Source of the DNA: Planctomycetota bacterium
GTDB taxonomy: Bacteria > Planctomycetota > UBA8742 > UBA2392
DNA length: 64,000 nt
Assembly (NCBI GenBank): GCA_016712285.1
Contig: JADJRK010000001.1
Span: 2,113,098 to 2,177,097 of the forward strand
Direction: 5' to 3'
In this document: in pieces, positions 2,665 through 54,808 of the stretch
How positions within the stretch are numbered: position 1 is the first letter of the stretch
Layout of the letters: the number at the start of each line of letters is the position of its first letter
Made by a program: the position numbers and the translations under genes
Notes under the pieces: generated by a model
The model's database searches: none
Told to the model about the DNA's origin: nothing
Seen by the model: only the letters and a program-made list of their open reading frames with translations

Positions 2665-3888
2665 TCAACCCTTCACGCACACGACCTGCTTCAGTGTGTG
2701 CAGGATCTCGACCAGGTCGCTCTGGGCCTCCATCACCGCGTCGATGTCCTTGTACGCAGCCGGCGTTTCGTCGATCACGTCCTTATCTTTGCGGCACTCG
2801 ACGCCCGCCGTGGCAGCCTCGTGGTCTTTCACCGTGAACTTCTTGCGCGCCTCGTTGCGGCTCATGACGCGGCCCGCGCCGTGGCTGCACGAGTGGAAGC
2901 TCTCCTCGCAGCCCTTGCCGCACACGATGTAGCTGCGGGCACCCATGCTGCCGGGAATGATGCCGAGCTCGCCCTTGCGGGCTGACACGGCGCCTTTGCG
3001 CGTGACGAACACCTGCTCGCCGTAATGCTCTTCGCGCTGCACGTAGTTGTGGTGGCAGTTCACGGCCATCAGCTCGGCGTTGAATTCGGGCACCAGGCCC
3101 GTGATCGCAACGGCATTGATCACCGCGCGCATCATGCACTCGCGGTTGATACGTGCATACTCCTGCGCCCAATGCACGGCTTCGACGTAGTCGTCAAAGT
3201 GCTCGGTGCCTTCGTCAAGATATGCCAGGTTTTCATCGGGCAGGTTCTTCATGTGCTGGCGCATGTCGTTCTTCGCAAGCTGGATGAAGTAGGTCCCGAT
3301 GCGGTTGCCCACGCCGCGCGAGCCGCTGTGCAGCATGAACCACACGTGGCCTGCCTCGTCGAGGCAGACCTCGATGAAATGGTTGCCCGTGCCAAGCGTG
3401 CCAAGCTGGCCGGCGGGATGGGCGTTGCGCTCAAGCTTGGGGTACTTGTCGGTGATTGCCTTGTAGCCCGCTTCCAGGGCCTTGTACGCCGCCGCCACGT
3501 GCTCGGGCGGGTCGTTCCAGGCGCCGCGGTCGTTGCGGCCGCCACGGTCGGTGCGACCGTGCGGCACGGCGCGCTCAATCGCGCCGCGAATCGGCAGCAG
3601 GTTGTCGGGCAGGTGCTCGGCTTTCAACGAGGTCTTCACGGCGCACATGCCGCAGCCGATGTCCACACCCACGGCCGCGGGAATGATCGCGGCCTTGGTC
3701 GGCACAACGCTGCCGACGGTCGCGCCGAGGCCCCAGTGCACGTCGGGCATGGCGGCGACCCACTTGTGGATGATCGGCAGCTTGGCGGTGTTGATCAGCT
3801 GCTGCTCGGCGTTGGCGTCGAAGTGAACGCCCTCAATCCACGCCTTGATCGGCTTGGCACCCTTATGAGTAATCATCTTGTACGGCAT
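2665..3888 (-). CDS. rtcB: RNA-splicing ligase RtcB
   Basis: RtcB family throughout (MPYKMITHKGAKPIKAWIEGVHFD..., NHFIEV, HNY, C-terminal HSCSHGAGR). The ORF extends to 4293 but the true start is placed at MPYKM (3888), giving the canonical 408 aa, with GAGGAC upstream. Confidence 0.9.
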   Translation of the reverse strand: MPYKMITHKGAKPIKAWIEGVHFDANAEQQLINTAKLPIIHKWVAAMPDVHWGLGATVGSVVPTKAAIIPAAVGVDIGCGMCAVKTSLKAEHLPDNLLPIRGAIERAVPHGRTDRGGRNDRGAWNDPPEHVAAAYKALEAGYKAITDKYPKLERNAHPAGQLGTLGTGNHFIEVCLDEAGHVWFMLHSGSRGVGNRIGTYFIQLAKNDMRQHMKNLPDENLAYLDEGTEHFDDYVEAVHWAQEYARINRECMMRAVINAVAITGLVPEFNAELMAVNCHHNYVQREEHYGEQVFVTRKGAVSARKGELGIIPGSMGARSYIVCGKGCEESFHSCSHGAGRVMSRNEARKKFTVKDHEAATAGVECRKDKDVIDETPAAYKDIDAVMEAQSDLVEILHTLKQVVCVKG

Positions 3889-3938: not shown

Positions 3939-4880
3939 TCAGGCCGCCAGCCCTTCCAGCAGCATGCGCCAGGACTGCTGCTCGCGGGCCGGGTCGATCA
4001 GCGGGCGTTTGGCTTCGCAGCGCTGTTGCAGCTCGTTGTAGAAATCTCTGTCTGACTCGGCGCGCTGCAGCAAGCGCGCCAACGCTTGCGTGTCCCCCAC
4101 CTCGAACAAGCCGGGATAATCCGCACCCATGATGCCGATCGATGCGCCCATGCGACTCAGGATCGCCGGCGTGCCGCAGGCAATTGCCTCGGTCAGCACG
4201 TTGGCGCCGCCTTCCATGACTGACGTCAGCACCATCAGGTGCGATGACGCGAGCACATGCAGCGTTTCTTCGCGCGTGACTTCGCCGCGCCACTCGTAGC
4301 GCGGGTTTGCGCGCACTTCTTGTTCGGCGCGCGAGCGCATCTCCGGGTCCAGCGCGCTGCCCAAATGCACGACGCGGACGCGCGAGTCCGGCGGCAAAAG
4401 GCGCAGCGCCTCTGCCGTGCGAAACGGGTCCTTTACTTCGCGCAGGTGCCCGATCACGCAGGCCCGGAAATGATCCGATGGCCGTGGCGGCGCGTCGACC
4501 GGGGCAACAGCCGACTGGTAAATCACATGGGCGCGCTCGCGGTACTCGGGCGCCAGCTGCGTCAGCGCGTGCGGCTGCAGCACGATAAAACGATCTGCAA
4601 GCCTGACCGACAACTGCGCTTCTTCGTCGACCTGCACGTCGCGATAGATGTCGGTGCCGGTGAGCGCAAGCACGACGGGACGGCCGGGAAACTCGGCTTT
4701 GAACTTCAGGATTTCAGGATGGCTGTGCTTGGCGTGCAGCGCGACGAGCACGTCGGCGCCGTGGTCCACGAGCGTGTGCCCGAGTTGCCCGAAGATGTCG
4801 GCCCAGCGATCGGCGGTGATGCCGTTACCGCGGCGCGTGTGGCTGAACGGCGTGTGCAATTGAATCTTCAAAGGGCGCAT
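3939..4880 (-). CDS. senB: GT-B family 4 glycosyltransferase, SenB-like (selenosugar synthase candidate)
   Basis: ~313 aa; GT4 motif EGGANVLTEAIACGTPAILS; size and position next to an EgtB/SenA-family gene match selenoneine SenB. Start chosen at MRPLKIQL just downstream of the neighbour's stop. Confidence 0.5.
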   Translation of the reverse strand: MRPLKIQLHTPFSHTRRGNGITADRWADIFGQLGHTLVDHGADVLVALHAKHSHPEILKFKAEFPGRPVVLALTGTDIYRDVQVDEEAQLSVRLADRFIVLQPHALTQLAPEYRERAHVIYQSAVAPVDAPPRPSDHFRACVIGHLREVKDPFRTAEALRLLPPDSRVRVVHLGSALDPEMRSRAEQEVRANPRYEWRGEVTREETLHVLASSHLMVLTSVMEGGANVLTEAIACGTPAILSRMGASIGIMGADYPGLFEVGDTQALARLLQRAESDRDFYNELQQRCEAKRPLIDPAREQQSWRMLLEGLAA

Positions 4881-6163
4881 GTACGGAACCCGGCAAGAAT
4901 GTCGTTGCGATGGGGCGTGTAGAAGTTGCGCCAGGTGTTGCGAATCAGGCGCGAGCGCGTGCAATACGTGCCGCCACGCAGCGCCTTGAAGCCGACGAAC
5001 CAGGGCTCGCTGTATTCGCTGTACATGTCAGCGACGAAACCCGGATAGCCCTTGAACTCGGTGTCTGTCCACTCCCACACGTTGCCCAGCATCTGGCGCA
5101 CACCGAACGCGCTGTCGCCTGCCGCGTGCGCACCGACATCCACTGTGCCCGGCACGCGGGTATCGAGGTTGCCGTGCTCGGGGCGCGGCGGTTCGTCGCC
5201 CCACGGGTAAAGCCGCTTGCGCGGGCCCAGGCCGCCCTTGCCGTTTGGTTCGCAGCTTGCGGCGCATTCCCATTCGGCTTCGGTGGGCAGCCGGCGGCCG
5301 GCCCAGCGGCACCAGGCCTGCGCTTCGTACCAGCTTACGTGAATCACGGCGCGGTGCGGCTCAAGCGGCACCCACTTGTCGAACTGCCGGCGTTGCCACG
5401 CGCCGCCCTGCTTGCGCCAATACACCGGGTGCGCGCGCCCGTGTGCGATGCGCCACGCCCAGCCCTGTTCTCCCCAGTGCCTTGGATCCTCATAGCCGCC
5501 GTCGTCGACGAACGCGGCGAACTGCGACTGGCTGACGGCTGCACGGGCGATCTTGAACGGTTGCACCGTCACCGGGTGGGCCCACTTTTCGTTGTCAAAG
5601 ACGAACACGGCGTCTTTGGATGCACCAAGCATGAACGTGCCGCCGGGGATTTCAGCGTCGCCATCGAGTGGACCGGCCTCGGGAAAAACAGGGACAGGCA
5701 CCGTTGGTGCCTGTCCCTGTTTTTCGAGCTTGGGCTCGGGGTAGCCGAGTGTCTGGCGGGTGTAAGTGAACGCCTCGCCGTGCATGTCTTCGTGGTAGAT
5801 GGCGTAGCGCGTGAGGTAGAAGTCTTCAGGCGACAAACCGTCGGCGACGCGGTCGTGGATGGCCTTGCAGTACGCCAGCGTGTCCTCAAAAGAGGGCAGC
5901 GGCAGGTTCCAGCGCGTGGTGTGGGCAATGCTGATCGAGTCAAACAGCGCGTCTTCGTCCGGGCGTGTCGGCGGCAAGCCGCGCCTCTCACGCAGCACCC
6001 ACCGCGAGTAGAAGTAACTGGCGTGGCCGATTTCCCAGCGCAGGGGGTTCACAGTGGGCAAGTACGGGCCCATGAGCTGTGCTGGCGAAAGGTCAGTCAC
6101 CAGCGCCCGGCAACGCTGATGGGAGTCGTACAGTGCAGCAATCAGTGTGTCCGCATCGTTCAT
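4868..6163 (-). CDS. senA: EgtB/SenA-family sulfoxide (selenoxide) synthase (DinB-like N-domain plus FGE-sulfatase domain)
   Basis: 431 aa. DinB_2-type N-terminus with two HxxxE metal-binding motifs (HASYFYSRW, HTTRW, HEDMHGE); FGE-sulfatase-like C-terminus (RRLPTEAEWECAA, RGGTYCTRSRLIRNTWRNFYTPHRNDILAGFRTC). EgtB vs SenA cannot be distinguished from sequence alone. Confidence 0.65.
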   Translation of the reverse strand: MNDADTLIAALYDSHQRCRALVTDLSPAQLMGPYLPTVNPLRWEIGHASYFYSRWVLRERRGLPPTRPDEDALFDSISIAHTTRWNLPLPSFEDTLAYCKAIHDRVADGLSPEDFYLTRYAIYHEDMHGEAFTYTRQTLGYPEPKLEKQGQAPTVPVPVFPEAGPLDGDAEIPGGTFMLGASKDAVFVFDNEKWAHPVTVQPFKIARAAVSQSQFAAFVDDGGYEDPRHWGEQGWAWRIAHGRAHPVYWRKQGGAWQRRQFDKWVPLEPHRAVIHVSWYEAQAWCRWAGRRLPTEAEWECAASCEPNGKGGLGPRKRLYPWGDEPPRPEHGNLDTRVPGTVDVGAHAAGDSAFGVRQMLGNVWEWTDTEFKGYPGFVADMYSEYSEPWFVGFKALRGGTYCTRSRLIRNTWRNFYTPHRNDILAGFRTCAL

Positions 6164-21698: not shown

Positions 21699-22122
21699 GG
21701 TTTCGGAAACAAATCGGGCTGGCCGTGCGTTCTATTCGCGATGCGTTTGGACGTTGATTTCTGACTTCGGAGAGAGCCGTGTTAGCCCCCTTTTCTTCTT
21801 TTGAATCACCTTTGGCCGGCGTTGAGTTGCGCCGGGACAAACCCGTTTCGCGCCAGGCTTACGCCCGTCGCAACCGCCCAAGCCTGCGTGCCCGCATGGC
21901 CGACGCTGTGCTCTACCGCGCACTGAAGCTCGTTCGCGTGGCACTGCGCAAACGCAGGCAGCGCCGCCGCGCCCGTTGCGCCACGCCGCTGGCCCGCATG
22001 TCGGGCTGTGCGTAGCCGCAACACCGGGTAACGCCGTTCCAGATTCAAGAATTCTTCGCCGGTAACAGGTGCTGATGCCCCGCGCTCTGCCCTACAATGC
22101 CTTGCTCAATCGGGAGCGGGCG

Positions 22123-23067
22123 ATGAATGGTTCCAGAGTCAACGTGGTGCTGCTGGCGGTCACAGTGGTGGCCGTCGCGTTTGGCGTGTACGGCTTTCTC
22201 TTTGGCGGCAGCGTGACCCCGACACCAGTCGCCGCGCCATCCCCTGCGGACTTGGCCCACGACCAACGGACACGTGCCGACACATCTGGCACCGGACCCG
22301 ATGCGGATACAGACAAACCGGCGGATGACCAGAAGCCCAACAAGCCGAAGGCAAAGATGCCTGCCGGCGATACCGACCAACCCGGCCCGGATGAACCGGA
22401 CGCACCCAAGGCACCGTCTGAGCCCCATGGCGACGGGGTCATCGAGGGCACCGTGCTCGACCCGACAGGTCTGCCCATGGAAGGTGTGCTGCTGACTGCA
22501 TTGCGCAGCAAAACCCAGGGCAGCGGCCGGAATGTTGCGTACACCTTTGGGCGAAATGAATCGGCGGAAGACCTGCGGCGTGCCGCAGAGCGGCTCAGGC
22601 TGGCAACGCGGGAAGCCGTTTCGGGCAAAGAAGGCGCATTCAAGATCGAGGGCGTATCACCTGACGACCTGTACACGGTAAGCGCGGTGGATGAAGCCTG
22701 GGGCACAGCTCAGTATGGCGGCGTCGTAGCCGGCCAGCGCATTGTGCTGCAGTTTACGCTGTCACCGATCACCTCTGGCACCGTGCACGACGAACAGGGC
22801 AACCCGCTCGTCACCCGCTACAGCTACAGCTGGGGAGACGAGTTCAACCAGGACCGGGTGTTGCAGCCGAGTGGCCGGTTCCTCATCCGCTGGACCAGCG
22901 AGAGACTGGAACGCGTCCGCCTTGAGTGCGACGGGTTCATTCCGTCCGACGCAATGGACAAGAGTTACCGTGATCGCCGAGACGTGAAAATCATCATGAG
23001 TCGCGCGCCACTGCTGCACGCACCGTATGCTCTGAAGGCGGCGAACCGGTGCGGCTGGCCAGGGTGA
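22123..23067 (+). CDS. CarboxypepD_reg-domain secreted protein, N-terminal part of a probably frameshifted gene
   Basis: Membrane anchor MNGSRVNVVLLAVTVVAVAFGVYGFLFGG; Pro/Asp-rich linker; CarboxypepD_reg-like GVIEGTVLDPTGLPMEGVLLTALRSK; stop at 23067 while the same domain architecture continues in frame 0. Confidence 0.5.
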   Translation: MNGSRVNVVLLAVTVVAVAFGVYGFLFGGSVTPTPVAAPSPADLAHDQRTRADTSGTGPDADTDKPADDQKPNKPKAKMPAGDTDQPGPDEPDAPKAPSEPHGDGVIEGTVLDPTGLPMEGVLLTALRSKTQGSGRNVAYTFGRNESAEDLRRAAERLRLATREAVSGKEGAFKIEGVSPDDLYTVSAVDEAWGTAQYGGVVAGQRIVLQFTLSPITSGTVHDEQGNPLVTRYSYSWGDEFNQDRVLQPSGRFLIRWTSERLERVRLECDGFIPSDAMDKSYRDRRDVKIIMSRAPLLHAPYALKAANRCGWPG

Positions 23068-24296
23068 ATGTCCATGCAATCGAAGAGGCGGCAGGAGAGC
23101 TTCCCGAAGAGCAGGGCCAGCGTCAAACCGACGCGCTGGGCCGCTTTGCCTTCAATTCTCTGCGCCCGGGCAAGTACCGGGTGACCGCCCGGATGCAGGG
23201 CGAGAGCAAGACCGCATTCGCCGACGTCGATCTGCGCGAAGACGTCAAGCTGGCCCTCGTGCTCGACCCCGGGCCAACGCTGACCGTGCGGGTGCTTGAT
23301 GCCGAAAAGCGCCCCGTGGGCGGCACCAACGCCTACCTGCGCGACACCGCCGGGGAATGGATTGAGACAACGACCTACGAGACCGAAACACCTGGCGAGA
23401 CCATCTTCTGTGGTCTGGCGGCTGGCCCGCTTCAACTCACGGTTACGGCGCCGGGCTATGCCATCCAGTGGTTTGACGTGGACATGCGGACGGGATCACA
23501 GACCATGAACGTCACGCTCAAGCGCGGCGGAAGCGTTTCCGGGCGCGTACTTGACGGTGCAGCGGCAGCCGTGCCTTCCATTCAGATCAGGTTTCGACCT
23601 GACGGCAGCACGTTCAGGGGAAGCGCGATCTCGGACACCACAGACGAAAAGGGCGGCTACAGCGCAAGCGGGCTGCTTCCCGGAACCTGGATCGTCGAGA
23701 TCGCCCGCGGCTGGGACGCCGAAACGCTGGTTACCGACACGCTCATGATCACCGAAGGCGAGAACCTGCGCGACTTCACGATCAGTGACTCGAGCCGAAT
23801 TCGCCTGAGCATCACACTGGACGGTCAACCGCCTGCGGATTGGCTGCGGGTGTGGATTTATTCCGAAGATTCCGACGTGCCTAGGGAGGAGTGGGTCAAC
23901 AGCAGCGATCGCAACCGCGTCATCTCTCTCGAAGAGGGCACCTACCACATATGCGCGCAGAGTGAAACGCACGCATCGCGGATGGTGCAGGTACGGGTCG
24001 CGCAAGGCGAAACCGAGGTGGTACTGCCATTGCACAAGCCCAACGCCATTCGCATCAACTGGCTTGAAACTGGCAGTGGGTATTCGCGCGGCGGCGCAAT
24101 GGAGGGCGACTTGATTTTGACCTGCAATGCCCAGGAGGTGTCGGACAAAGCCTCAATGCAGCGAATCATCAATGATTCCGCAAACCGGCCTGAAGTGACC
24201 GAGCTTACGGTGGTCATGCAGCGAGGCGGCAAGCAGGTCACGGCAAAGTGGTCCAAATCGCTGCCCATTCCGGAAACCGGTCCAGCGGTACGATAG
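23049..24296 (+). CDS. CarboxypepD_reg-domain repeat protein, C-terminal part of the probably frameshifted gene
   Basis: Several CarboxypepD_reg-like repeats (GRFAFNSLRPGKYRVTA, LTVRVLDAEKRPVGGTNAYL, GSVSGRVLDGAAAAVP, GGYSASGLLPGTWIVEI); no RBS or signal peptide of its own. Confidence 0.5.
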   Translation: MRLARVNVHAIEEAAGELPEEQGQRQTDALGRFAFNSLRPGKYRVTARMQGESKTAFADVDLREDVKLALVLDPGPTLTVRVLDAEKRPVGGTNAYLRDTAGEWIETTTYETETPGETIFCGLAAGPLQLTVTAPGYAIQWFDVDMRTGSQTMNVTLKRGGSVSGRVLDGAAAAVPSIQIRFRPDGSTFRGSAISDTTDEKGGYSASGLLPGTWIVEIARGWDAETLVTDTLMITEGENLRDFTISDSSRIRLSITLDGQPPADWLRVWIYSEDSDVPREEWVNSSDRNRVISLEEGTYHICAQSETHASRMVQVRVAQGETEVVLPLHKPNAIRINWLETGSGYSRGGAMEGDLILTCNAQEVSDKASMQRIINDSANRPEVTELTVVMQRGGKQVTAKWSKSLPIPETGPAVR

Positions 24297-24420
24297 GTGT
24301 ATGAAGTTTATGCACAGCAAGCACTTACAATATCACCACAAAAGGTGGTAGCTATTTGAGGATTCGCTGGAACTTTGGCACGGCTTATCGCGTACTTAGG
24401 TGGGTGCGCGGAGGAGCGAG

Positions 24421-25773
24421 ATGCATTCTTCTAGATTGACGATCACGGGCATTTTGGCGCTGCTGATTGGCGGCGCCGTGTTCGCGGGCAGCCTGTACTT
24501 CGCCGAAGCGAGCGAAAGCAATGCCATTCGCGCCTGCGTCGGGACAGAAGACATCGCAGAATGCAGCGTGCTTGAACCACCCCCCAAACCCCGTGAACCC
24601 GTCACGATCACACTGCCCACGGACATCGACAAGCCGGTCGGCCCGGTAGACGAGCAGGCGCTGCTCAAGACAGATGCAGAGGCAGAGGACACCGATACTG
24701 ACCCAACAGACGAATTGCCGCCGGAACTGACCGAGAAAGAGAAGGTCGTCGCCGAGCTCACCGAGCTGCTTGAGAAGGTCGGGAAGGGCCAGATTGAAGG
24801 CACTGGCCCCGAGACGTTTCCGTTCACCGTGACGATTTCAGGGCGCGTGATCGACGACGCCGGCCGCGGCGTGGATGGCGCACAAGTCTCGGCACGCTTC
24901 AGTTACACCTATGCAAAGCCGACCGCCCCCGAAGAAAGCTCGCGTCGGCGCAGCACAAGAACTTCTGCCACGAATGTCGGCGTTGTTGCCACCACGGACG
25001 CCGGCGGCCACTACACAGCCACGATCACGGCCAAGCTTCTGTCCAAGGTAGACCTGGTGACCGTGGCCATGAGCGCCACGGCTGACCTGTTTGCACCCGG
25101 CGCAGCCGTTCTGGTCAAGGACTTGAAAGAGGCAGAACAACGCACGGGCGTTGACTTGTCGATGTTCGGCGCGGGCATGGTGACCGGCCGCGTGGTGGAC
25201 CGCCAGGGCAACCCGCTCAAGGGCGTAGTCGTGAGGGGCATAGAGGCGCGGAACACAGGCGGCAATAAAATGAGCGAACCCGTGCGCCGGTCCGCTATTG
25301 CGACGCTGGTTGCCCCGACCGATGCCGACGGAAAGTTCAAGATCACCGGCCTGATCGCCGGCGACTGGGTGTTCTTTGCCACCAGCAAGACGCACCAGGA
25401 ACCTGACCAGCCTGAGAAGCTGACGGTGCTCGCCGGCAGCGAACATGTCCTGCCCGATATCGTGATGGCGCCGTTCACCAGCGTGCGTGTGCGCCTGCTG
25501 CATGAAGACGGCACCGCTGTAACCGAGCGACCGAGCGTGACGTTCTACTTCAAGCATGGCAACAACAGCACGCGGGGTCTGGTCGGCCGCGCGGACGCCG
25601 AGGGCTACGTGACCGTCACGCGTGTGCCCGCCGATGCCACGGAATTCACGCTCAGCCCGCGCGGCTACGAAGCCATCGCAGGCAACTATTTGCGCCTGAT
25701 CGAGGGCCAACTGAATGAGGCCGGCGAACACCGGGTGCGCCCGGTGCCGGCCAAGGTCAAGAAGTCTCGTTAG
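24421..25773 (+). CDS. CarboxypepD_reg-domain secreted protein
   Basis: RBS GGAGGA then ATG 24421; signal/anchor MHSSRLTITGILALLIGGAVFAG; repeats TVTISGRVIDDAGRGVDGAQV, MVTGRVVDRQGNPLKGVVV, DADGKFKITGLIAGDW. Confidence 0.65.
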   Translation: MHSSRLTITGILALLIGGAVFAGSLYFAEASESNAIRACVGTEDIAECSVLEPPPKPREPVTITLPTDIDKPVGPVDEQALLKTDAEAEDTDTDPTDELPPELTEKEKVVAELTELLEKVGKGQIEGTGPETFPFTVTISGRVIDDAGRGVDGAQVSARFSYTYAKPTAPEESSRRRSTRTSATNVGVVATTDAGGHYTATITAKLLSKVDLVTVAMSATADLFAPGAAVLVKDLKEAEQRTGVDLSMFGAGMVTGRVVDRQGNPLKGVVVRGIEARNTGGNKMSEPVRRSAIATLVAPTDADGKFKITGLIAGDWVFFATSKTHQEPDQPEKLTVLAGSEHVLPDIVMAPFTSVRVRLLHEDGTAVTERPSVTFYFKHGNNSTRGLVGRADAEGYVTVTRVPADATEFTLSPRGYEAIAGNYLRLIEGQLNEAGEHRVRPVPAKVKKSR

Positions 25774-27042: not shown

Positions 27043-28506
27043 TCAGGTGCGCGTACGCGACGCCACGCGTGATGCCGCAACCAGACCAAACAACGTCAAC
27101 AGCAGCAGCCAGACGCCGGAGCCGTGGCCTGAAACACAACCGCCGCCGTTGGAGGTGCCAGAACCGTTTCCAACACCGACGTTGGCGCCGGTAGCGGTCA
27201 CCTGTACCCGGAACGGCTCACGCTCGCTGCCGTCCATGTGCGGGATCAGGATCGTCGCGCTGCGCACGCCGTTGGCGAGTGGCGTGAAGCGCACGATCAG
27301 GGTTGTTGTCTGCGCCGACGTAACCGTGGTCGAGTACGCAGCCAGCTCAACAGTGAAGTCAGCGTCGCCTTGCACCGTCGGCGTGCCCAGCGTCAGGTCC
27401 GCCCCGGGCACATAGCCGATCCATGCAAAGTAGCCGACATCTGCGTTGCAGATCGTCAGCGTCAGCGTCGCCGAGTTGCCGCCGTCGACGGTGCCCAGGT
27501 CGCGGTTGCCTGTGGCAGGCGCGTTCTCGGCCATGTGAGAGCCCGTGTAAGCTGGCGGCGTCGGGTTGTTGTCAAAGAACGGTCCGCTGTTGTCGCAGAC
27601 CCGCAGTTGCCATGCCTCGGTGATGCCCTCGCCGAGAAGCTGCACCACGAACGGGCTGGCGTTCACGCCGTCGTCCTGCGTGAGCTGCAAAGCGCCGGCA
27701 TGTATGCCGACAGTGGCTGGGTCGAAGGCCACCCGCACTTCAGCGGCGGCGCCGGCTGGCACCGTCGCGACGAACCCCGACAGGTCGAGCGCAAATTCGG
27801 CGCTGCCGGTGGTCAACACCGGGGTGCCAAGGTGAAGATCCGGCGCACCCATCGGCGCGTCGTTTCTCAGCCACAGCACAAGCACCGCGGTCGGGCCCGC
27901 AGAGAGCTTGCGCCGTCCAAACTCGCGTCCATTGCCGGACGACTGGTTGTGGTAGACGCGTGTGCCGGCAGGCGTTGACTCGTGAACGCTGAGATATGAA
28001 ACAGCCGCCGCGGAAGTGCTGCCCTGTACGTTTACGCGAAAGTCCACGTAAGTGCCCGGGTATTGGTAGGGATCGGACTCCCACGTGTACGTCACCGTGC
28101 CCGAGAACGAGCCTGCCGACTGGGGCGTAAACCGCACCTTGAACTCGGTCTCGCTACCAGTGGCGACGCCGGTCGTGACGAAGCCGGTCGTGTCGATGTC
28201 AAAGTTTGCCCCGCCTGCGGTCAGCGTTGGCGTGGTCATGTACAGCGTGTCGCCGCCCCCGAACATCGTGGTGACACTGCGAATCCGGATCGTGACCCAG
28301 TCCGACGCGTTGCCGACCAGCGTCGGGCGAAACACCCGCCCATAGTCGGCTGCATCGTTGTCGTATAGCGGCGTGACCGTGGCGCCGGCTGAGGTCTCGT
28401 CGACCTCCATGACCGGGCCGGGGTAAGCGGGTGGTGTTGGACTCGGGTTTGCCATCAGTACCGGCGCAAGCAAAAGCAGCGCCGGCAGCATTGCTGCCTT
28501 GAGCAT
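27043..28506 (-). CDS. large beta-rich secreted surface protein with MYXO-CTERM-like C-terminal sorting signal
   Basis: Signal MLKAAMLPALLLLAPVLMA; Thr/Gly/Val-rich Ig-like repeats; C-terminus GGGCVSGHGSGVWLLLLTLFGLVAASRVASRTRT (Cys motif, TM, Arg cluster). Confidence 0.6.
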   Translation of the reverse strand: MLKAAMLPALLLLAPVLMANPSPTPPAYPGPVMEVDETSAGATVTPLYDNDAADYGRVFRPTLVGNASDWVTIRIRSVTTMFGGGDTLYMTTPTLTAGGANFDIDTTGFVTTGVATGSETEFKVRFTPQSAGSFSGTVTYTWESDPYQYPGTYVDFRVNVQGSTSAAAVSYLSVHESTPAGTRVYHNQSSGNGREFGRRKLSAGPTAVLVLWLRNDAPMGAPDLHLGTPVLTTGSAEFALDLSGFVATVPAGAAAEVRVAFDPATVGIHAGALQLTQDDGVNASPFVVQLLGEGITEAWQLRVCDNSGPFFDNNPTPPAYTGSHMAENAPATGNRDLGTVDGGNSATLTLTICNADVGYFAWIGYVPGADLTLGTPTVQGDADFTVELAAYSTTVTSAQTTTLIVRFTPLANGVRSATILIPHMDGSEREPFRVQVTATGANVGVGNGSGTSNGGGCVSGHGSGVWLLLLTLFGLVAASRVASRTRT

Positions 28507-28769
28507 TGTCGTCTCCTCCAGAAAAGTGCCAGTGTCCTCGCGGGGCACTAAGCAACCCCTGTGCCAAGGCAGGAAAGCGCGTCACGGGGCGGGGATTCGG
28601 CCGGTGCGGCTACCGTTTCGTCACCAGCGGTTGCTTGCAGGGTACGCCGGGCCCAGCGGTCCTGGGCCGCCGGACCTGACGCTCGCAAGCCCAGTCCGGT
28701 GACTTGTTATGCAATGCGTGCCTGACTAGCATGACGCCCCCAAGGCAGACCGTAAGCACGAGGGAGAAC

Positions 28770-35407: not shown

Positions 35408-36937
35408 TTAGCGAGGGTCTGGAACCAGGCGCCGGTTCACCACCCATAGTGCCCCTCGTGTGCGTTTTTCCACACTCTCGAGGGCGGGTGCCGATTCTGC
35501 TTCCAGACGCCAGCCAGCGGCGCCAAGTCCGCTGCGGCGGCCACGGTAGGCATTCTCATCCAGCCACCACTCCAGCAGCCGGGCGCTTTCCGCGTCAAAG
35601 CCGCCCTCTCCCTTGTACGCCATGGCGGCAAAGTCGCGAAAACGCGTGCCGTTGACTTCGCCAAACGCCAGCTCGGCTGGCGCGGCGGGCTCGCCTGTCT
35701 GCAACGGAAGATCGAGTTGCCAACCGGCCCTGCCCTGTGCGTTGCGCCACGGACGCGGCAAGACCCGTGCTGCATTGGCCAAATCCACGGCCAGCGTCTC
35801 GTCCACATCCTGCCCGGGCAGCAGGAACGCCCGGGCTGAGGCCGGCCGTTGGCGATCCTGCGACTCGGCATACACAACGGCCCAGCAATCCAGCAGCGGT
35901 CGCGGTTGCGGCTGCAGCAGCGCAAGGGCGCCAATCGCCGCGGCACCAGCCGCAAGGGCAGGCATCGACCACAGCGCGCCGAATTTGACGCGCCGCGCAA
36001 CCAGCGGCACCACGCCGCATAGCGCAAGCAGCGCGCCTGCCAGGCCGAAAAACAGCGCCCCCGGCTGCGGCGCCTCGGGCGTGCCGGCAACCACGTTCAG
36101 GGCGGCGGGCGATGGCACTCGCGACTGGGGCTTGCCGGCTGGGGCGCGCGTGTCACCGAACCACATGTGATCGAGCAGTGCGCCGCGCAACACCGCGTAG
36201 GGGTTGCCGCTGCGGCGCAGTTCTTCAAAGTCGATGCGGTAAATCGCGCCGGGTCCGTACGCCATGCGCTGCGCGCTTACGCCGTGGAACTTGAGCAACT
36301 CGGCCTCTGCGGGCGCGGGCAGCCCTTCCACTTTTTCGCCCATCCGGAACGAGCCGACGATGATCGCCGCGCCGCCCAGGCTGCAAAACTCGGCAATCGC
36401 GCGCTGGGTGCCCGCCGGTGGACGCTGCGCCTCGGGGCTGAACAGCACCAGCCCGTCGTATCCGTCAAACAGCCGCCAGTCAGAAAAGAACTCGCGGTTC
36501 TCGTAGTAGTCGCACGCAAGCTGCCCGGGCACGCTGGGCAGAATCGGCCGGGCGTACATGGCGTCGGCCGCGAACACGGCCACATAGGGCTGCTCGTAAT
36601 CGGGCTCCATGCGCCGCAGCGGCAGGCGGGGCGTGTGCTCGTCACCCGCGACGCGAATGACCACGTCGGGCGCGACGTATACCGGCAGGATTGTCTCGCT
36701 GGTTTCACCGGCCTTGGCGGCGACTTGCACGACCAGCTTCACGTTGCCGTGGATCACCTCGACCCGTTCAGTCTCAGCCGTCGCCTTGAACACGAGTCGA
36801 TACGGCGCGCACGTGCCGGGGCGCCCGTGGGGCTCAGACAGAAAGCGGCTGCGGTCTTTGTCGATGGCCTGGGCATGCAGCGGCGCCGCCGTCACGACGG
36901 CCAGCAAAAGCAAGCTCAGTGCGGAAAGCGGTTGCAT
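35408..36937 (-). CDS. hypothetical secreted/membrane protein
   Basis: Start MQPLSALSLLLLAVVTAAPLHAQA (signal peptide) overlapping the upstream gene's stop (TGATG); two C-terminal TM helices; the 689-aa ORF extension is a different-frame artefact. Confidence 0.5.
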   Translation of the reverse strand: MQPLSALSLLLLAVVTAAPLHAQAIDKDRSRFLSEPHGRPGTCAPYRLVFKATAETERVEVIHGNVKLVVQVAAKAGETSETILPVYVAPDVVIRVAGDEHTPRLPLRRMEPDYEQPYVAVFAADAMYARPILPSVPGQLACDYYENREFFSDWRLFDGYDGLVLFSPEAQRPPAGTQRAIAEFCSLGGAAIIVGSFRMGEKVEGLPAPAEAELLKFHGVSAQRMAYGPGAIYRIDFEELRRSGNPYAVLRGALLDHMWFGDTRAPAGKPQSRVPSPAALNVVAGTPEAPQPGALFFGLAGALLALCGVVPLVARRVKFGALWSMPALAAGAAAIGALALLQPQPRPLLDCWAVVYAESQDRQRPASARAFLLPGQDVDETLAVDLANAARVLPRPWRNAQGRAGWQLDLPLQTGEPAAPAELAFGEVNGTRFRDFAAMAYKGEGGFDAESARLLEWWLDENAYRGRRSGLGAAGWRLEAESAPALESVEKRTRGALWVVNRRLVPDPR

Positions 36938-37566
36938 CACAGCGCAACCTCCGCCTGCTTTGGCGCGGGCAGGGCCAGCACCGCCGCCCATGGCAGCAGC
37001 GCCATCGGCAGCAGCGGCCACCACGACAGCGCACCCGCGGCAAGTGCCCATGACGGCGATACCGGCCGCAGGTGCAGCAGGCTGGCCGACGCGTACTCCA
37101 ACGCCAGGTAGTGCGCCAGCGGCGGCAGCGCAAACATGCACAGCAGCGCAACCCGCGCGCGCATCACCCACGCGCCACCAAGCCGGGCACCCAGAGAAAT
37201 CACGCCGCCCGTAAACAGCCACGCGCCAAGCGCGCCCCCCCGCGACTGCCACGGCAGCCCACCGCGCGCCACAAAGTGAAGCAGCAGCACACATGCGCTG
37301 GCGGCTGCAAAGCACGCAGTCACGGCCAGAAGGTTGCGCAGGGCAGCGCCGCGGGTCCGTGCACACAGGGGCAGAAACAGCAGCACGCAACAGGCCAGCT
37401 CGGCATGGATCGTGGCCAGTTGCAGCGTGCGGTCGTTTCCGACGCCCATGGGCTCGCCGATGCCGGCCAGCGAACAAATTCCGGCGACGGCAAACAGGAA
37501 CACAGCCACGACCAACGGGCTATGTGTCACAGGCGGGACCCCCAACTTCCGGCCTGCGGCGGGCAA
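36937..37566 (-). CDS. hypothetical polytopic membrane protein
   Basis: 209 aa, 5-6 hydrophobic segments; translationally coupled to the downstream gene. Confidence 0.45.
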   Translation of the reverse strand: MPAAGRKLGVPPVTHSPLVVAVFLFAVAGICSLAGIGEPMGVGNDRTLQLATIHAELACCVLLFLPLCARTRGAALRNLLAVTACFAAASACVLLLHFVARGGLPWQSRGGALGAWLFTGGVISLGARLGGAWVMRARVALLCMFALPPLAHYLALEYASASLLHLRPVSPSWALAAGALSWWPLLPMALLPWAAVLALPAPKQAEVAL

Positions 37567-39979: not shown

Positions 39980-41326
39980 TCAGCTGGCGCGCATCTCTTC
40001 GAGACTGATGTACTTCACGCGCGGGCGATTGGCCGCCTTGCCGCGTTCAATCTCGCGCGCATTGATCTGCTGCCATTCGTCAAACGAGACGTAGGCGCAG
40101 CCCGCAGCCTTCAGCAGGTCGGTGATGTCGCGGCCGGCTTCGACGCGGCGGACGTTCTTCACGTCTTCCAGCATCAGGGCCACGGTCTCTTCGGCGTCCT
40201 TTTTGTTCGTCCCGATCACGCCCGTCGGGCCGCGCTTGGCCCAGCCCACCACGTAGGCCCCGGGCAGCACGTTGCCGTCGGCGTTCATCACGCGCCCGTG
40301 ATCGTTGGGGACGATGCCCTTGCGCTTGTCGTAGGGCACGCCCGGCAGCGCCACGCCGTAGTAACCCACGCTGCGCAGCACCATGCCAGCGGCAAGCTCT
40401 TCGAACTCGCCGATGCCTTCGCAGTTCATGTAGCCGTCGGGCGTACTCACCAGGCGATTGCGTTCAATTTTCACGCTGCTTACCCAGCCGTCTTTGCCCG
40501 TGACTTCGACCGGCGAAACCAGAAACCGAAAGTGCACCTTGCGCGGCTTGTCGCCCATGCCGCGGGCTGCGTACTCGCGCAGGAACTCAACGTTCTGGCG
40601 CGTGAGGCGGTCGGCATCGACGGTTTTCTGGCTTTCGGGATCGAGCTCAATCTCTTCGGGCTTGACCACGGCATCAGCGACTTGCAGGTGCCCGAACTCT
40701 TTGATTTCGGGGTTCGTGAACTTGGCCTGCGCCGGCCCGCGCCGGCCCAGCACGTAGATGTGCCTGACCTTGCTGTGTTTCAGCGCTTCCAGCGCGTGGT
40801 CGGCAATGTCGGTCACTTTCAGTTCGTCGTACGACTTGGCCAAGATGCGCGCGACGTCCATGGCCACGTTGCCGACACCGACAACGGCCACGCCTTCCAC
40901 GTCGAGGTTCGGGTTCAGGTCGCGGTAGTCCGGGTGGCCGTTGTACCAGGCCACGAACTCGGTGGCGGACATGCTGCCCTTGAGGTCTTCGCCGGGGATG
41001 TTCAGGTTTCGGTCTGACTGCGCACCCGTAGCGAACACCAGCATGTCGTAGTGCGGGCGCAGGTTGTCCATCGTGATGTGCTTGCCGAACTCTACGCCGC
41101 CAAAAAAGCGCACGCGCGGGTCTTGCGCCGTCTTTTCGTACAGGTTCGCGACGCTCTTGATCTTGGGGTGATCGGGCGCCACGCCGTAACGAACCAGGCC
41201 GTAGGGCGCGGGCAGGCGGTCGAACAGGTCCACCCTGACCTCGACGTCTTCCTGCTTGATCAGTGCAGCAGCTGCGTAGAAGGCACTCGGTCCGGCGCCG
41301 ATGATGGCGATGCGTACAGCAGGCAT
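39980..41326 (-). CDS. ferredoxin--NADP+ reductase, FprA/adrenodoxin-reductase type
   Basis: MPAVRIAIIGAGPSAFYAA (FAD GxGxxG), PAPYGLVRYGVAPDHPKIK, second Rossmann VAVVGVGNVAMDVARIL. Confidence 0.8.
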   Translation of the reverse strand: MPAVRIAIIGAGPSAFYAAAALIKQEDVEVRVDLFDRLPAPYGLVRYGVAPDHPKIKSVANLYEKTAQDPRVRFFGGVEFGKHITMDNLRPHYDMLVFATGAQSDRNLNIPGEDLKGSMSATEFVAWYNGHPDYRDLNPNLDVEGVAVVGVGNVAMDVARILAKSYDELKVTDIADHALEALKHSKVRHIYVLGRRGPAQAKFTNPEIKEFGHLQVADAVVKPEEIELDPESQKTVDADRLTRQNVEFLREYAARGMGDKPRKVHFRFLVSPVEVTGKDGWVSSVKIERNRLVSTPDGYMNCEGIGEFEELAAGMVLRSVGYYGVALPGVPYDKRKGIVPNDHGRVMNADGNVLPGAYVVGWAKRGPTGVIGTNKKDAEETVALMLEDVKNVRRVEAGRDITDLLKAAGCAYVSFDEWQQINAREIERGKAANRPRVKYISLEEMRAS

Positions 41327-41422
41327 GGTGTTCCTTTCGTGGGGCGCATTGTTCCAAGCGTTGCAGGATAGGCAACTGGAATAGGGCCGCAAAGCGACTC
41401 GTGAGTTGGCGATGCAATTGCT

Positions 41423-43525
41423 CTAGTCGGGAAAGCGCAGAATGCGCAGTTTGCCGCCCTCGACCAGGTGCAGCGTGGCATCGCCCCCGGCGTGCATCTC
41501 TTCTGCCTGGGCGGCTTTGCGTGTGAGCACGCGGCCGGTTGCCACCTCGTAGAAGATCAGTTCAAGCCGCTCGATCGTCGCCAGCACCGTGCCGCCGAAA
41601 AGCAGCGCAACCGCCTGCGGCGGCACGCCTGTGCGCAACGTGTGTTCCTCTGCACCCTGGACCGAAACAACCCTGACCAGTTGCCCAAGCGTCAACGCTA
41701 GCACCTGCCCGTCGGCGGACAGTGCCATGCGGTCGGGCGTCAGGCCTTCTCGGGCCGCAATCGCGTGCGGGTCCGGGTTGCCGAGTTCATTGATCACGTA
41801 GAGACTGTCGCGGTAGCGCAGCGCCGCAGCGGGCGCACTTGCAGCAAACGCAACTTCTTCCGGCGGCGGCGTCGGGGCCGAAAACTGCGTGCGGCGCGAG
41901 TCCTTGCCCAGGAACACCAGTTCATTCGGTGCCTTGTAGAGCAAGAGTCTGCCCATCGGCCACGCGCCAAGCAGCACGCCGTCGCGCTCGACCGTGGATT
42001 GACCGCCCCATGGCAGAATGAGTTGCTCGCCATCGGCGGCCGCAAATGCGTCACCCGCCGGCACCACACGCGTCAGCTTGCCCGCGGTGTGCCACTGCCC
42101 CTGCCCCCACACGCGACTGGTGCCGCCGCGCGAGGTGAGGACAAAACCGCCGGCGGCTGTCCGGGCCGCGAACTCGGGGGGCACGCACAGCAGGCTTTGG
42201 CCCAGCTGGCGCTCGCGCGCCAGCAGCCGCATGCTCAATTCTCCGCGGTCGTTGCCAAACACCAATCCGTCCGGCCCCAGGGCGCCAAAGCTGACCGCAT
42301 CGCCACCCAGGGACCATTCGCTGAGGCCATCGGGCCCGATCAGCGCCGCGGCACCCTGCGCACCCAGGCACAACAGCGTGCCATCGGCCATGAACGCCAT
42401 GCGCGACCAGTTCACGGGCGAGAGCTGGTGAAAGCGCACAAACCGCTCGCCGGGCGCATCCAGCGGGATCGACACCAACTCGACATCGCGGCCTGTGATG
42501 GCCGCCGCGAACAGCGCCGTCCCTGCGTCAAACAGGGCGGCGAGCATCGGCGGGTCGGTGGGCCGAAAACTGTACAGCGGCTCCCAGCCGGCACCTGTGT
42601 GCGCAAGCACGTCGCGCCCGGCAACCACGGCGACGCCCTGCCGCGCCAGCGACTGAAGCGCCTTCAACTCGCCGCTGTCTGACGGCAGCAGGCGCGACAC
42701 CGGCCGCGCACCGCCGGGCGGGTGCACGCTGACTTCGCCGGGCCTTGCCGACGCAAGCTCGGCCAAGTCGTCGCGGACACTCAAGTGTGTCCAGGATTGC
42801 GGGTCCACAGTGTCCGGGCCGGGCGCGCCCACGGCAGCGGCTTCGCCATCGACCGGGCCGCCCAGCAGCCGTCCGCCATGGCGCACCAGAAAGCGCTCGC
42901 CGCGGGCATCCAGATGCAGGTCACCCGAGTCAGAGGCATCGGGCAGCTTCACCGTGAAGAGCAGTTTGCCTTCGCGCACGTCATAGATTTCCAGCAGGCT
43001 GACCCGGCCAAGGGCAATGCGAACAACGCCAAGTCGGCTGCGGTCGCCGCTCAGCGCGCCGCAGGCCACGGCGGCGTCTGCGTTGCTGCTGCCGGTAAAC
43101 CGCGCGGGGTCAGGCCTGAGTTCGCGCTGCAGCAGCGGCGCCCACGGCGGGGGCCCCAGCGCCTGCGCCTCTTGAAACAGCGTGCGCGCCCGCGACTCAT
43201 ATCCCTGCGCAAAGTCCTGTGCGGCGAGGCGACACTTCTCCAGGGCCAGTGCCCGCTTCTGGCGCAGTACCTCGGCGCCTGTCTGCTCATGGGCCTGCTT
43301 TAACTCATTGGAGTGCGCGGCTTCGGCCTGAAACGCACCATCGGCCACGAGAGCGTCGTCGCGGGCCGACTTGACGTCGCGCTGCATGTTGCGATAGGCC
43401 GACATGCCAAGCACCGCCAGCGTCACCAGCACCAGCGCGCATGCACCAAAGATCACGCGCTGCAGCTTCAGCCGCGCCAGCAGGTGCGCCTCGATGTCGG
43501 TGGGTTTGATCGGCGTGTCAGGCAT
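41423..43525 (-). CDS. hypothetical membrane-anchored beta-propeller-like protein
   Basis: 700 aa; N-terminal TM VIFGACALVLVTLAVLGM, coiled-coil, then repetitive Gly/Ala-rich beta-rich region. Confidence 0.55.
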   Translation of the reverse strand: MPDTPIKPTDIEAHLLARLKLQRVIFGACALVLVTLAVLGMSAYRNMQRDVKSARDDALVADGAFQAEAAHSNELKQAHEQTGAEVLRQKRALALEKCRLAAQDFAQGYESRARTLFQEAQALGPPPWAPLLQRELRPDPARFTGSSNADAAVACGALSGDRSRLGVVRIALGRVSLLEIYDVREGKLLFTVKLPDASDSGDLHLDARGERFLVRHGGRLLGGPVDGEAAAVGAPGPDTVDPQSWTHLSVRDDLAELASARPGEVSVHPPGGARPVSRLLPSDSGELKALQSLARQGVAVVAGRDVLAHTGAGWEPLYSFRPTDPPMLAALFDAGTALFAAAITGRDVELVSIPLDAPGERFVRFHQLSPVNWSRMAFMADGTLLCLGAQGAAALIGPDGLSEWSLGGDAVSFGALGPDGLVFGNDRGELSMRLLARERQLGQSLLCVPPEFAARTAAGGFVLTSRGGTSRVWGQGQWHTAGKLTRVVPAGDAFAAADGEQLILPWGGQSTVERDGVLLGAWPMGRLLLYKAPNELVFLGKDSRRTQFSAPTPPPEEVAFAASAPAAALRYRDSLYVINELGNPDPHAIAAREGLTPDRMALSADGQVLALTLGQLVRVVSVQGAEEHTLRTGVPPQAVALLFGGTVLATIERLELIFYEVATGRVLTRKAAQAEEMHAGGDATLHLVEGGKLRILRFPD

Positions 43526-53423: not shown

Positions 53424-54734
53424 TTACTTCAGGACCCACGCCTTCCACTCAGCCTCGAAATCCGCCAGCGATTTGCCGAAGCGTTTGGCGAAGTCGCGGC
53501 GACGGGTGTCGGTACGGTAGTAGTCCACCAGCAGATACAGGTAGGCCTTGCGGTACTCCTTGTTCTCGAACAGGCAGTACCATCCGACACTGCCGGCCAG
53601 CGCGTACTTTTCCGTACTCGAGATCGGCGTGCCGTCGGCAAAGCCCGCATGGCCCTGCGCAAAGATCGGCGCCAATTCGGGCACTTTGCCGTCTTTGCCC
53701 TTCCATGCCTTGATCGTCCAGTCGCGCTGGTCTTCGAGGCCCTTGAGTTTGTAGCCGGTCTTGGTGAGTTGCAGGTCTTCAAAGACGATCGCGATGCTTT
53801 CGACAATCCAGGCGTGTTCGCGCGTGCTGGCCAACGACCAGGCATCCATCCCGCCGCGTCGCCCGCGCAGGCCGATCTCGACCAGCCGGTGCGCGCACTC
53901 GTGGAACAGCGTGCGCGCCAGGTTGTCCCAGCTCTTGTTCTTGCGACCGACGAAGTCGCAACGCTCGGCGTTGACCAGCACTGCGCCCAGCGAGCCGACG
54001 TGCAACCCGCCGTTGTCCTTGCCCATCGGAAACTCAAGCGACGTGGTGAAGTCCACAAACGTCTGCGCGTCCTTGCAGCACCAGACCACGTTGGGGTGAG
54101 GGCGGCGCGGCAGCACGTCGCCAATCAGCTCAAAAAAGATGTCGTCGAAGCGCTCAAGGTACTCGGCGTACTTCTTCGCCCGCGACCATGGCAGGTCGGT
54201 CACCAGGCAGAACGTCTTGCCGATGATGACCCACGGCTGTTGCCAGGTCACTTCGCGCTCTTGCTTGGCGGGCGCGCCTTCGAGCGCGATCGCCAACGGT
54301 GACAGCCGCTCATGCTCGGCTTTGGCAAGCCAGCCCATGCCCTTGAGTTCAAGCATGCCCGCGCGCTCCAGCGCCGGGGCGTAGTCCGGGCAGATCGTCA
54401 GCACGTCCTGGGCGGGATTGCCCGCGTCGAAGGCCCCTTGCGCGCGACGCCGCTGTGTGGCCTCAAGACGGTCGAGATAGCCACCCCATGCCTCGGCTGT
54501 GTATTCGTCAGGCAAGTCGGCGCACGCGGCGACGATTTCTTTGGCGCGGTCACCGTTGACGCCGGTGCACAACCTGATGGCTTCTGAGTTCAGCTCTTGC
54601 TCAAGGCAGTACTCGGCAAGCGCAACTGTCGCGTCGTGATAGCCCGCCTGCGAAGGGTGCCAGGGCAAACCATCGCCCCCATGCAGGCCACAGGCCAGCA
54701 GGGCGAACAGCAATACGGTGGTTGTTCGAAGCAT
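53424..54734 (-). CDS. secreted putative zinc metallopeptidase (HExxH)
   Basis: Signal MLRTTTVLLFALLACG; HECAHRL HExxH motif. Confidence 0.5.
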   Translation of the reverse strand: MLRTTTVLLFALLACGLHGGDGLPWHPSQAGYHDATVALAEYCLEQELNSEAIRLCTGVNGDRAKEIVAACADLPDEYTAEAWGGYLDRLEATQRRRAQGAFDAGNPAQDVLTICPDYAPALERAGMLELKGMGWLAKAEHERLSPLAIALEGAPAKQEREVTWQQPWVIIGKTFCLVTDLPWSRAKKYAEYLERFDDIFFELIGDVLPRRPHPNVVWCCKDAQTFVDFTTSLEFPMGKDNGGLHVGSLGAVLVNAERCDFVGRKNKSWDNLARTLFHECAHRLVEIGLRGRRGGMDAWSLASTREHAWIVESIAIVFEDLQLTKTGYKLKGLEDQRDWTIKAWKGKDGKVPELAPIFAQGHAGFADGTPISSTEKYALAGSVGWYCLFENKEYRKAYLYLLVDYYRTDTRRRDFAKRFGKSLADFEAEWKAWVLK

Positions 54735-54808
54735 GTGAATCGCCGAGGGGATGGCGACGGGGCCTGCCGCCATGATCGGTGTTCAGGGCTGGAACTGCAA
54801 CCGTGAAA

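Follow-up and report, generated by a model that had tools for sequence, protein, structure and literature searches.

The 64-kb stretch of Planctomycetota DNA analysed here (the window; 64,000 nucleotides of contig JADJRK010000001.1) carries a pair of overlapping genes, senA and senB (Table 1). The first encodes a 431-residue protein with a DinB-like domain and an FGE-sulfatase domain, as stated in a first-pass annotation of the sequence and confirmed with Pfam (DinB_2, E 1.7e-9; FGE-sulfatase, E 6.8e-48). The second encodes a glycosyltransferase. Its open reading frame (ORF) as listed spans 3939..4964 (minus strand), and a product of 313 amino acids, in agreement with the size estimated earlier, results when translation is counted from a plausible ATG at 4880. 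Read directly from the sequence (acATGCGCCCTTTGAag, acATGCGCCCTTTGA), the two genes overlap by 13 nucleotides (4868..4880, minus strand): the senB ATG (4880-4878) falls within the final codons of senA, whose TGA occupies 4870-4868. This overlap has the appearance of a translational-coupling junction and is compatible with the co-transcription that had been proposed for the pair. The GC content at third codon positions of senA (0.79) is the same as that of the adjoining genes. The known selenoneine pathway is very probably represented here, in a Planctomycetota genome, by these two genes as a self-contained module; they encode ordinary members of the SenA and SenB families.

Table 1. The senA-senB pair and the features downstream of it (coordinates in the window).
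Feature	Coordinates	Strand	Description
senA	4868..6163	minus	431-residue ORF; DinB-like N-domain and FGE-like C-domain; putative non-haem-iron selenoxide synthase (selenoneine synthase)
senB	3939..4880	minus	313-residue product; GT-B fold, putative GT4-like Se-glycosyltransferase (selenosugar synthase)
rtcB	2665-3888	minus	RtcB ligase; downstream of senB, same strand
rtcA	1659-2663	minus	RtcA 3'-phosphate cyclase; downstream of senB, same strand; RNA-repair pair with rtcB
tRNA array	123-1411	minus	13 tRNAs; directly downstream of rtcB/rtcA

Comparison with curated hidden Markov models (HMMs), which the first-pass annotation had put forward as a check, places the pair above the SenA and SenB cutoffs and the larger protein below that of EgtB. 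The 431-residue protein scores 491.9 bits against the NCBIfam equivalog model for SenA (NF041186; cutoff 420, E 1.6e-147) and 317.5 bits against the EgtB model TIGR03440, where the cutoff is 360. The 313-residue protein reaches 345.7 bits with the SenB model TIGR04348 (cutoff 300, E 2e-103), and its runner-up family reaches 84 bits; neither E-value is attributable to chance. Together with the SenA-type residues described below, these scores support the earlier suggestion of a selenoneine rather than an ergothioneine pair.

In alignment, the iron ligands of the window SenA form a three-His facial triad (H47/H124/H128), with H124 and H128 lying within the sequence H-E-D-M-H; the HxxxE metal-binding motif read earlier was not borne out. 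The catalytic tyrosine is predicted to be Y381. Triad and tyrosine align to H51/H134/H138/Y377 of EgtB, and Y381 to Y398 of OvsA. Hercynine is predicted to be bound by Y384/N413/F414. The selenosugar-pocket substitutions are H81 and Y415, which stand where EgtB has the Arg87 and Asp416 that bind gamma-Glu-Cys. Replacement of the EgtB thiol-binding Arg87 by His, and of Asp416 by Phe or Tyr, has been described for all SenA proteins (Kayrouz 2022, bioRxiv 10.1101/2022.04.13.486033).

Published composite motifs read xNEH--HRHxHYYN(F/Y)(F/Y)R for SenA, xNEH--HRHxHYMQAYR for OvsA, and xSDH--RRHQHYYNWDR for EgtB-I (PMC11030361). Aligned with three reference sequences, the window SenA (N39 E44 H47 / H81 R84 / H124 M127 H128 / Y381 Y384 N413 F414 Y415 R419, that is, NEH-HR-HMH-YYNFY-R) satisfies the SenA motif at 14 of the 14 non-gap positions tested, the leading x and the two gaps being excluded. 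The SenA of Variovorax paradoxus differs solely at the last F/Y position, a difference that the rule permits.

The window SenA is a long-form protein. Its residues 307-359 (about 50 residues, at about nucleotides 5087-5245) are present in EgtB and OvsA, but the V. paradoxus SenA that was crystallised lacks them. It is the short form on which NCBIfam built its SenA model (382 positions). The majority of related loci encode the long form. A neighbour-joining tree groups the window SenA and its closest relative with many other long-form SenA proteins in one large clade, with OvsA and V. paradoxus SenA outside it.

For the 313-residue protein, Pfam returns Glycos_transf_1 (E 8.9e-17), and the PDB match is V. 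paradoxus SenB (8jjn/8fbx, E 2e-52). Mapping onto 8JJN pairs N19/T22 with N20/T23, R147/K150 with R155/K158, E223 with E231, and E231 with E239. In the V. paradoxus enzyme, N20/T23/E231 govern sugar selectivity, K158 is required for cleavage of the selenium-phosphorus (Se-P) bond, and E239 binds ribose (PMC10891094). By residue correspondence, SenB retains the putative catalytic lysine (K150) and the predicted sugar-binding residues, with donor binding assigned to E231 and to the EGGANV motif that starts at E223.

The closest relative of the pair is found in a Planctomycetota metagenome-assembled genome (locus L001), whose SenA and SenB are 88% and 74% identical to those of the window. When public assemblies were queried for the exact sequence of the window SenA, no record matched. 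Ratios of non-synonymous to synonymous substitution rates in this comparison (0.089 for senA and 0.17 for senB) indicate that both genes are under purifying selection. Synteny with L001 is confined to senA-senB; the RNA-repair genes rtcBA and the TPR-like neighbours of the window pair are not kept there, and were left out of the system because of this lack of conservation. Since the flanking genes differ between the two genomes, senA-senB appears to move as a unit.

Family membership (by curated HMM cutoffs), retention of the published diagnostic residues, operon structure, and purifying selection were thus established directly, and the chemistry can be proposed by analogy with the biochemistry of the V. 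paradoxus enzymes. SenB would take selenophosphate and a UDP-sugar, most likely UDP-GlcNAc (where GlcNAc is N-acetylglucosamine), and form a C-Se glycosidic bond, with Se-P hydrolysis assisted by Lys150 yielding 1-seleno-beta-D-GlcNAc (SeGlcNAc). SenA would hold Fe(II) by His47/His124/His128, use O2 with the help of Tyr381, and join SeGlcNAc to the imidazole C2 of hercynine (N-alpha-trimethylhistidine). The resulting selenoxide would lose its sugar by elimination, leaving selenoneine. Selenophosphate would presumably be supplied by a selD/senC elsewhere in the genome, and hercynine by an egtD likewise located elsewhere.

The reference system for this proposal is the senABC cluster of V. paradoxus DSM 30034 (Kayrouz et al. 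2022; SenA, 8K5I/8K5J; SenB, 8FBX/8JJN). The same two enzyme families are present by equivalog HMMs, and the likeness extends to the iron triad, the catalytic Tyr, the hercynine-binding Y/N/F, the His and aromatic residue of the donor pocket, the SenB catalytic Lys, and the N/T/E sugar-binding set. The window SenA is 42% identical to its V. paradoxus counterpart, and the window SenB 37%. The window differs in its Planctomycetota host, in the extra residues of the long-form SenA, in the gene order (senA then senB, overlapping), and in the lack of senC both beside the pair and throughout the 64 kb.

The absence of senC from the window, which had been noted earlier, was confirmed with tblastn, for which 32 SelD/SenC sequences of related loci served as queries, and with an HMM made from those sequences. 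Pfam scans of the 53 ORFs called in the window likewise returned no AIRS-domain protein or AIRS-type kinase, no methyltransferase of the EgtD type or any other, and no SelA, SelU, or YedE/F. Near senA-senB, there is no egtC, egtD, or egtE. A selenocysteine tRNA, whose presence would hint at selenium use by the genome, is absent from the 13 tRNAs of the window. For lack of senC, the pair falls outside the three-gene definition of a cluster (senA-senB-senC within 5 kb). The lack of a linked egtD is shared with published sen clusters, where this gene is usually unlinked, and hercynine is normally taken from a separate egt locus (Kayrouz et al., bioRxiv 10.1101/2022.04.13.486033).

A census of related loci places this layout in context. 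A total of 160 loci were fetched, 80 of them from a metagenome scan in which the best match was 60% identical and the left flank was not extended; classification was limited to loci in which senA is flanked by 5 kb or more in either direction. Where senA is followed co-directionally by senB, as in the window, SelD is absent from the flanks of 22 loci and present in 2. Where senB and senA are divergent, mostly in Gammaproteobacteria, it is absent from 3 and present in 17, often as a fusion with a pyridine-nucleotide-disulfide oxidoreductase. The missing senC of the window is therefore real but ordinary, as co-directional pairs usually have no local selD. A published survey, in which 2,353 TIGR04348 genes yielded only 827 three-gene clusters, points the same way (Kayrouz et al., bioRxiv 10.1101/2022.04.13.486033). 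Closed chromosomes that bear senA-senB with no selD close by include OZ252100.1, OZ243984.1, and CBDCTK010000002.1. The 52 senA-senB loci without SelD have no conserved third gene, and no gene is common to more than 8 of them. The candidates considered were an ATPase of the ATP-binding cassette (ABC) type, an efflux protein resembling a permease, a flavoprotein similar to CoA-disulfide reductase, and a hydrolase of the CocE/NonD type; they include no plausible selenium activator or EgtD. A flavoprotein encoded in the window (39980-41392) was rejected as a SelD-associated oxidoreductase, as it resembles the small subunit of glutamate synthase and not TIGR03169.

Several observations weigh against assigning the pair to the selenoneine pathway. 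The window SenA is, overall, 46% identical to OvsA of Halomonas utahensis, compared with 42% for the characterised V. paradoxus SenA. No assayed member of the long-form SenA clade was found, and the choice of substrate rests on the logic of the motif. The window SenB reads EGGANV (from E223) where betaproteobacterial SenBs have EGGAHV. Of 67 SenBs taken from related loci, 48 have exactly EGGANV, which is thus probably a trait of the clade and not a defect, the His not being universal outside Betaproteobacteria. Lastly, neither selD/senC nor egtD nor other selenium-utilisation genes were found in the window, which reaches 58 kb beyond the senA side and just 3.9 kb beyond the senB side; the supply of substrates is thus presumed.

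The similarity to OvsA raises the question of the product. OvsA joins the selenosugar made by SenB to free histidine, giving 5-selenohistidine en route to ovoselenol (PMC11030361), and ovoselenol is a known form of the different thio/seleno-histidine that the first-pass annotation had offered as an alternative. Were the 431-residue enzyme an OvsA selenylating C5 of free histidine, the pair would belong to the ovoselenol pathway. The H. utahensis protein (PDB 8U41/8U42/8UX5) is indeed the closest solved structure, with the same domain layout and full-length similarity. PDB matches score 343.8 bits for its OvsA-YNF mutant and 334.1 bits for the wild type, against 245 bits for V. paradoxus SenA and 228 bits for EgtB. 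Moreover, ovs genes may be dispersed on the chromosome (PMC11030361), and the window lacks egtD. Selenoneine is nevertheless favoured by the active-site residues and by the lack of OvsM. OvsA binds free histidine via M401/Q405/Q430/A431; the window protein has Y/W/N/F there, with Y384/N413/F414 forming the SenA hercynine-binding set and Trp388 standing in place of Gln405, as in V. paradoxus SenA. The OvsA M401Y/Q430N/A431F mutant goes over to hercynine and C2 selenylation, becoming SenA-like in vitro (PMC11030361). Since the triple mutant switched experimentally, the Y/N/F motif can be read as hercynine specificity on an OvsA-like scaffold, and it is the mutant that outscores wild-type OvsA against the window protein, by 10 bits. 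The OvsA motif is absent from all of the first 80 related loci, and OvsA itself falls outside the window clade in the tree. Unlike the H. utahensis pathway, the window has no OvsM N-pi-methyltransferase, nor was any other methyltransferase family detected by Pfam in its 53 ORFs, and reports of OvsA are confined almost entirely to aquatic Gammaproteobacteria. An ovoselenol pathway is accordingly very unlikely here. A similarly slim chance attaches to ergothioneine synthesis by a sulfoxide synthase of the EgtB type, with an unrelated glycosyltransferase beside it. The window protein shares with the type I EgtB of Mycolicibacterium thermoresistibile (PDB 4X8B) the DinB and FGE fold, the three-His iron site, the catalytic Tyr, and the hercynine-binding Tyr/Asn, and it still scores 317.5 bits with the EgtB model. 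This score remains below the cutoff, however, while the SenA score exceeds its own. The thiol-binding Arg87/Asp416 are replaced, the N/E positions are of the SenA type and not S/D, and the EgtB-I motif is mismatched at S/D, R87, Q, W, and D416. The neighbour is no generic GT4 protein, but a TIGR04348 equivalog that overlaps senA by 13 nucleotides, and there is no egtACDE context.

A different kind of doubt concerns selenium supply. The module might run without a selenophosphate synthetase, either in a selD-less host that employs another chalcogen donor to make a different product, or as a silent remnant. The 64 kb without selD, the rarity of selD within 5-10 kb of related co-directional loci (lacking in 22 of the 24), and the failure to find a conserved substitute for the third gene are in keeping with this idea. 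Strong purifying selection on senA and senB and their intact catalytic residues speak against decay. As for another donor, published assays found SenA to be very poor with a thiosugar and detected no formation of thiophosphate (bioRxiv 10.1101/2022.04.13.486033). It is simpler to suppose a selD at a distance, for which the ovs genes of M. vinifirmus, being dispersed, offer a precedent, and operation without the synthetase is improbable. Pairs of this layout that lack a nearby SelD occur in Planctomycetota, Acidobacteriota, Poribacteria, Gemmatimonadota, and others. It is conceivable, if decidedly improbable, that co-directional senA-senB might function in genomes wholly devoid of selenophosphate synthetase, with SenB accepting another activated chalcogen donor and the pair giving a new product or following a new route.

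With the selenoneine assignment, a Planctomycetota lineage joins the organisms predicted to make this compound. The two-gene form without linked senC is the commonest layout in the clade of the window, and, because of this, genome mining for three-gene clusters would undercount producers. Overall similarity alone would misassign the window SenA to OvsA, and the product can be called only with the help of the published motif of the active site. Existing knowledge of the pathway is altered by neither point. The Prokaryotic Genome Annotation Pipeline (PGAP) is expected to name both genes alike, since it uses the same NCBIfam models.

The genes surrounding senA-senB are housekeeping genes. Upstream of senA lie a TPR-like ORF, a gene of the KDO8P/DAHP-synthase family, a GntR-aminotransferase, and RNase E/G. 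The tRNA array on the other side comprises Met, Lys, Thr, Val, Pro, Glu, Asp, Ile, Arg, Ala, Gly, Phe, and His. Two of its 13 members (Met, 123-195, and Thr, 284-357) are ARAGORN calls that are not among the matches at the Rfam tRNA gathering score. Scans for promoters and terminators around the senA-senB operon gave counts no better than chance.

Variation among the related loci extends to the SenA active site. In eleven SenA-like proteins, the hercynine-binding positions read Thr-Tyr instead of Asn-Phe/Tyr (composite ...YYTYYR); these proteins match the published rule for neither SenA nor OvsA, and their substrate may differ. They come from Gammaproteobacteria (L009, L010, L013, L015, L016, L024, L029, L036, and L038) and from Methylomirabilis-like genomes (L020 and L030). 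All nine gammaproteobacterial loci have SelD nearby, fused to an oxidoreductase in L009, and SenB, where detected, is divergent.

Seven loci encode SenA with no SenB in the fetched flank: L006 (12502-14874), L072, L020, L030, L042, L048, and L080. In these, senA is followed by a betaine-type ABC transporter, made up of a ProV-like ATPase and a fused permease/OsmF/OpuBC-like binding protein, which presumably resembles the EgtUV ergothioneine importer. Its position beside senA may point to import of a substrate or product.

Elsewhere in the window, a series of ORFs at 22069-25773 (plus strand) and 27043-28548 (minus strand) carries CarboxypepD_reg, Big_1, and Ig-like repeats and probably encodes secreted or surface proteins. 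No match in Pfam was obtained for several ORFs of 200-700 amino acids, such as those at 35408-37477, 41423-43525, and 53424-54773.

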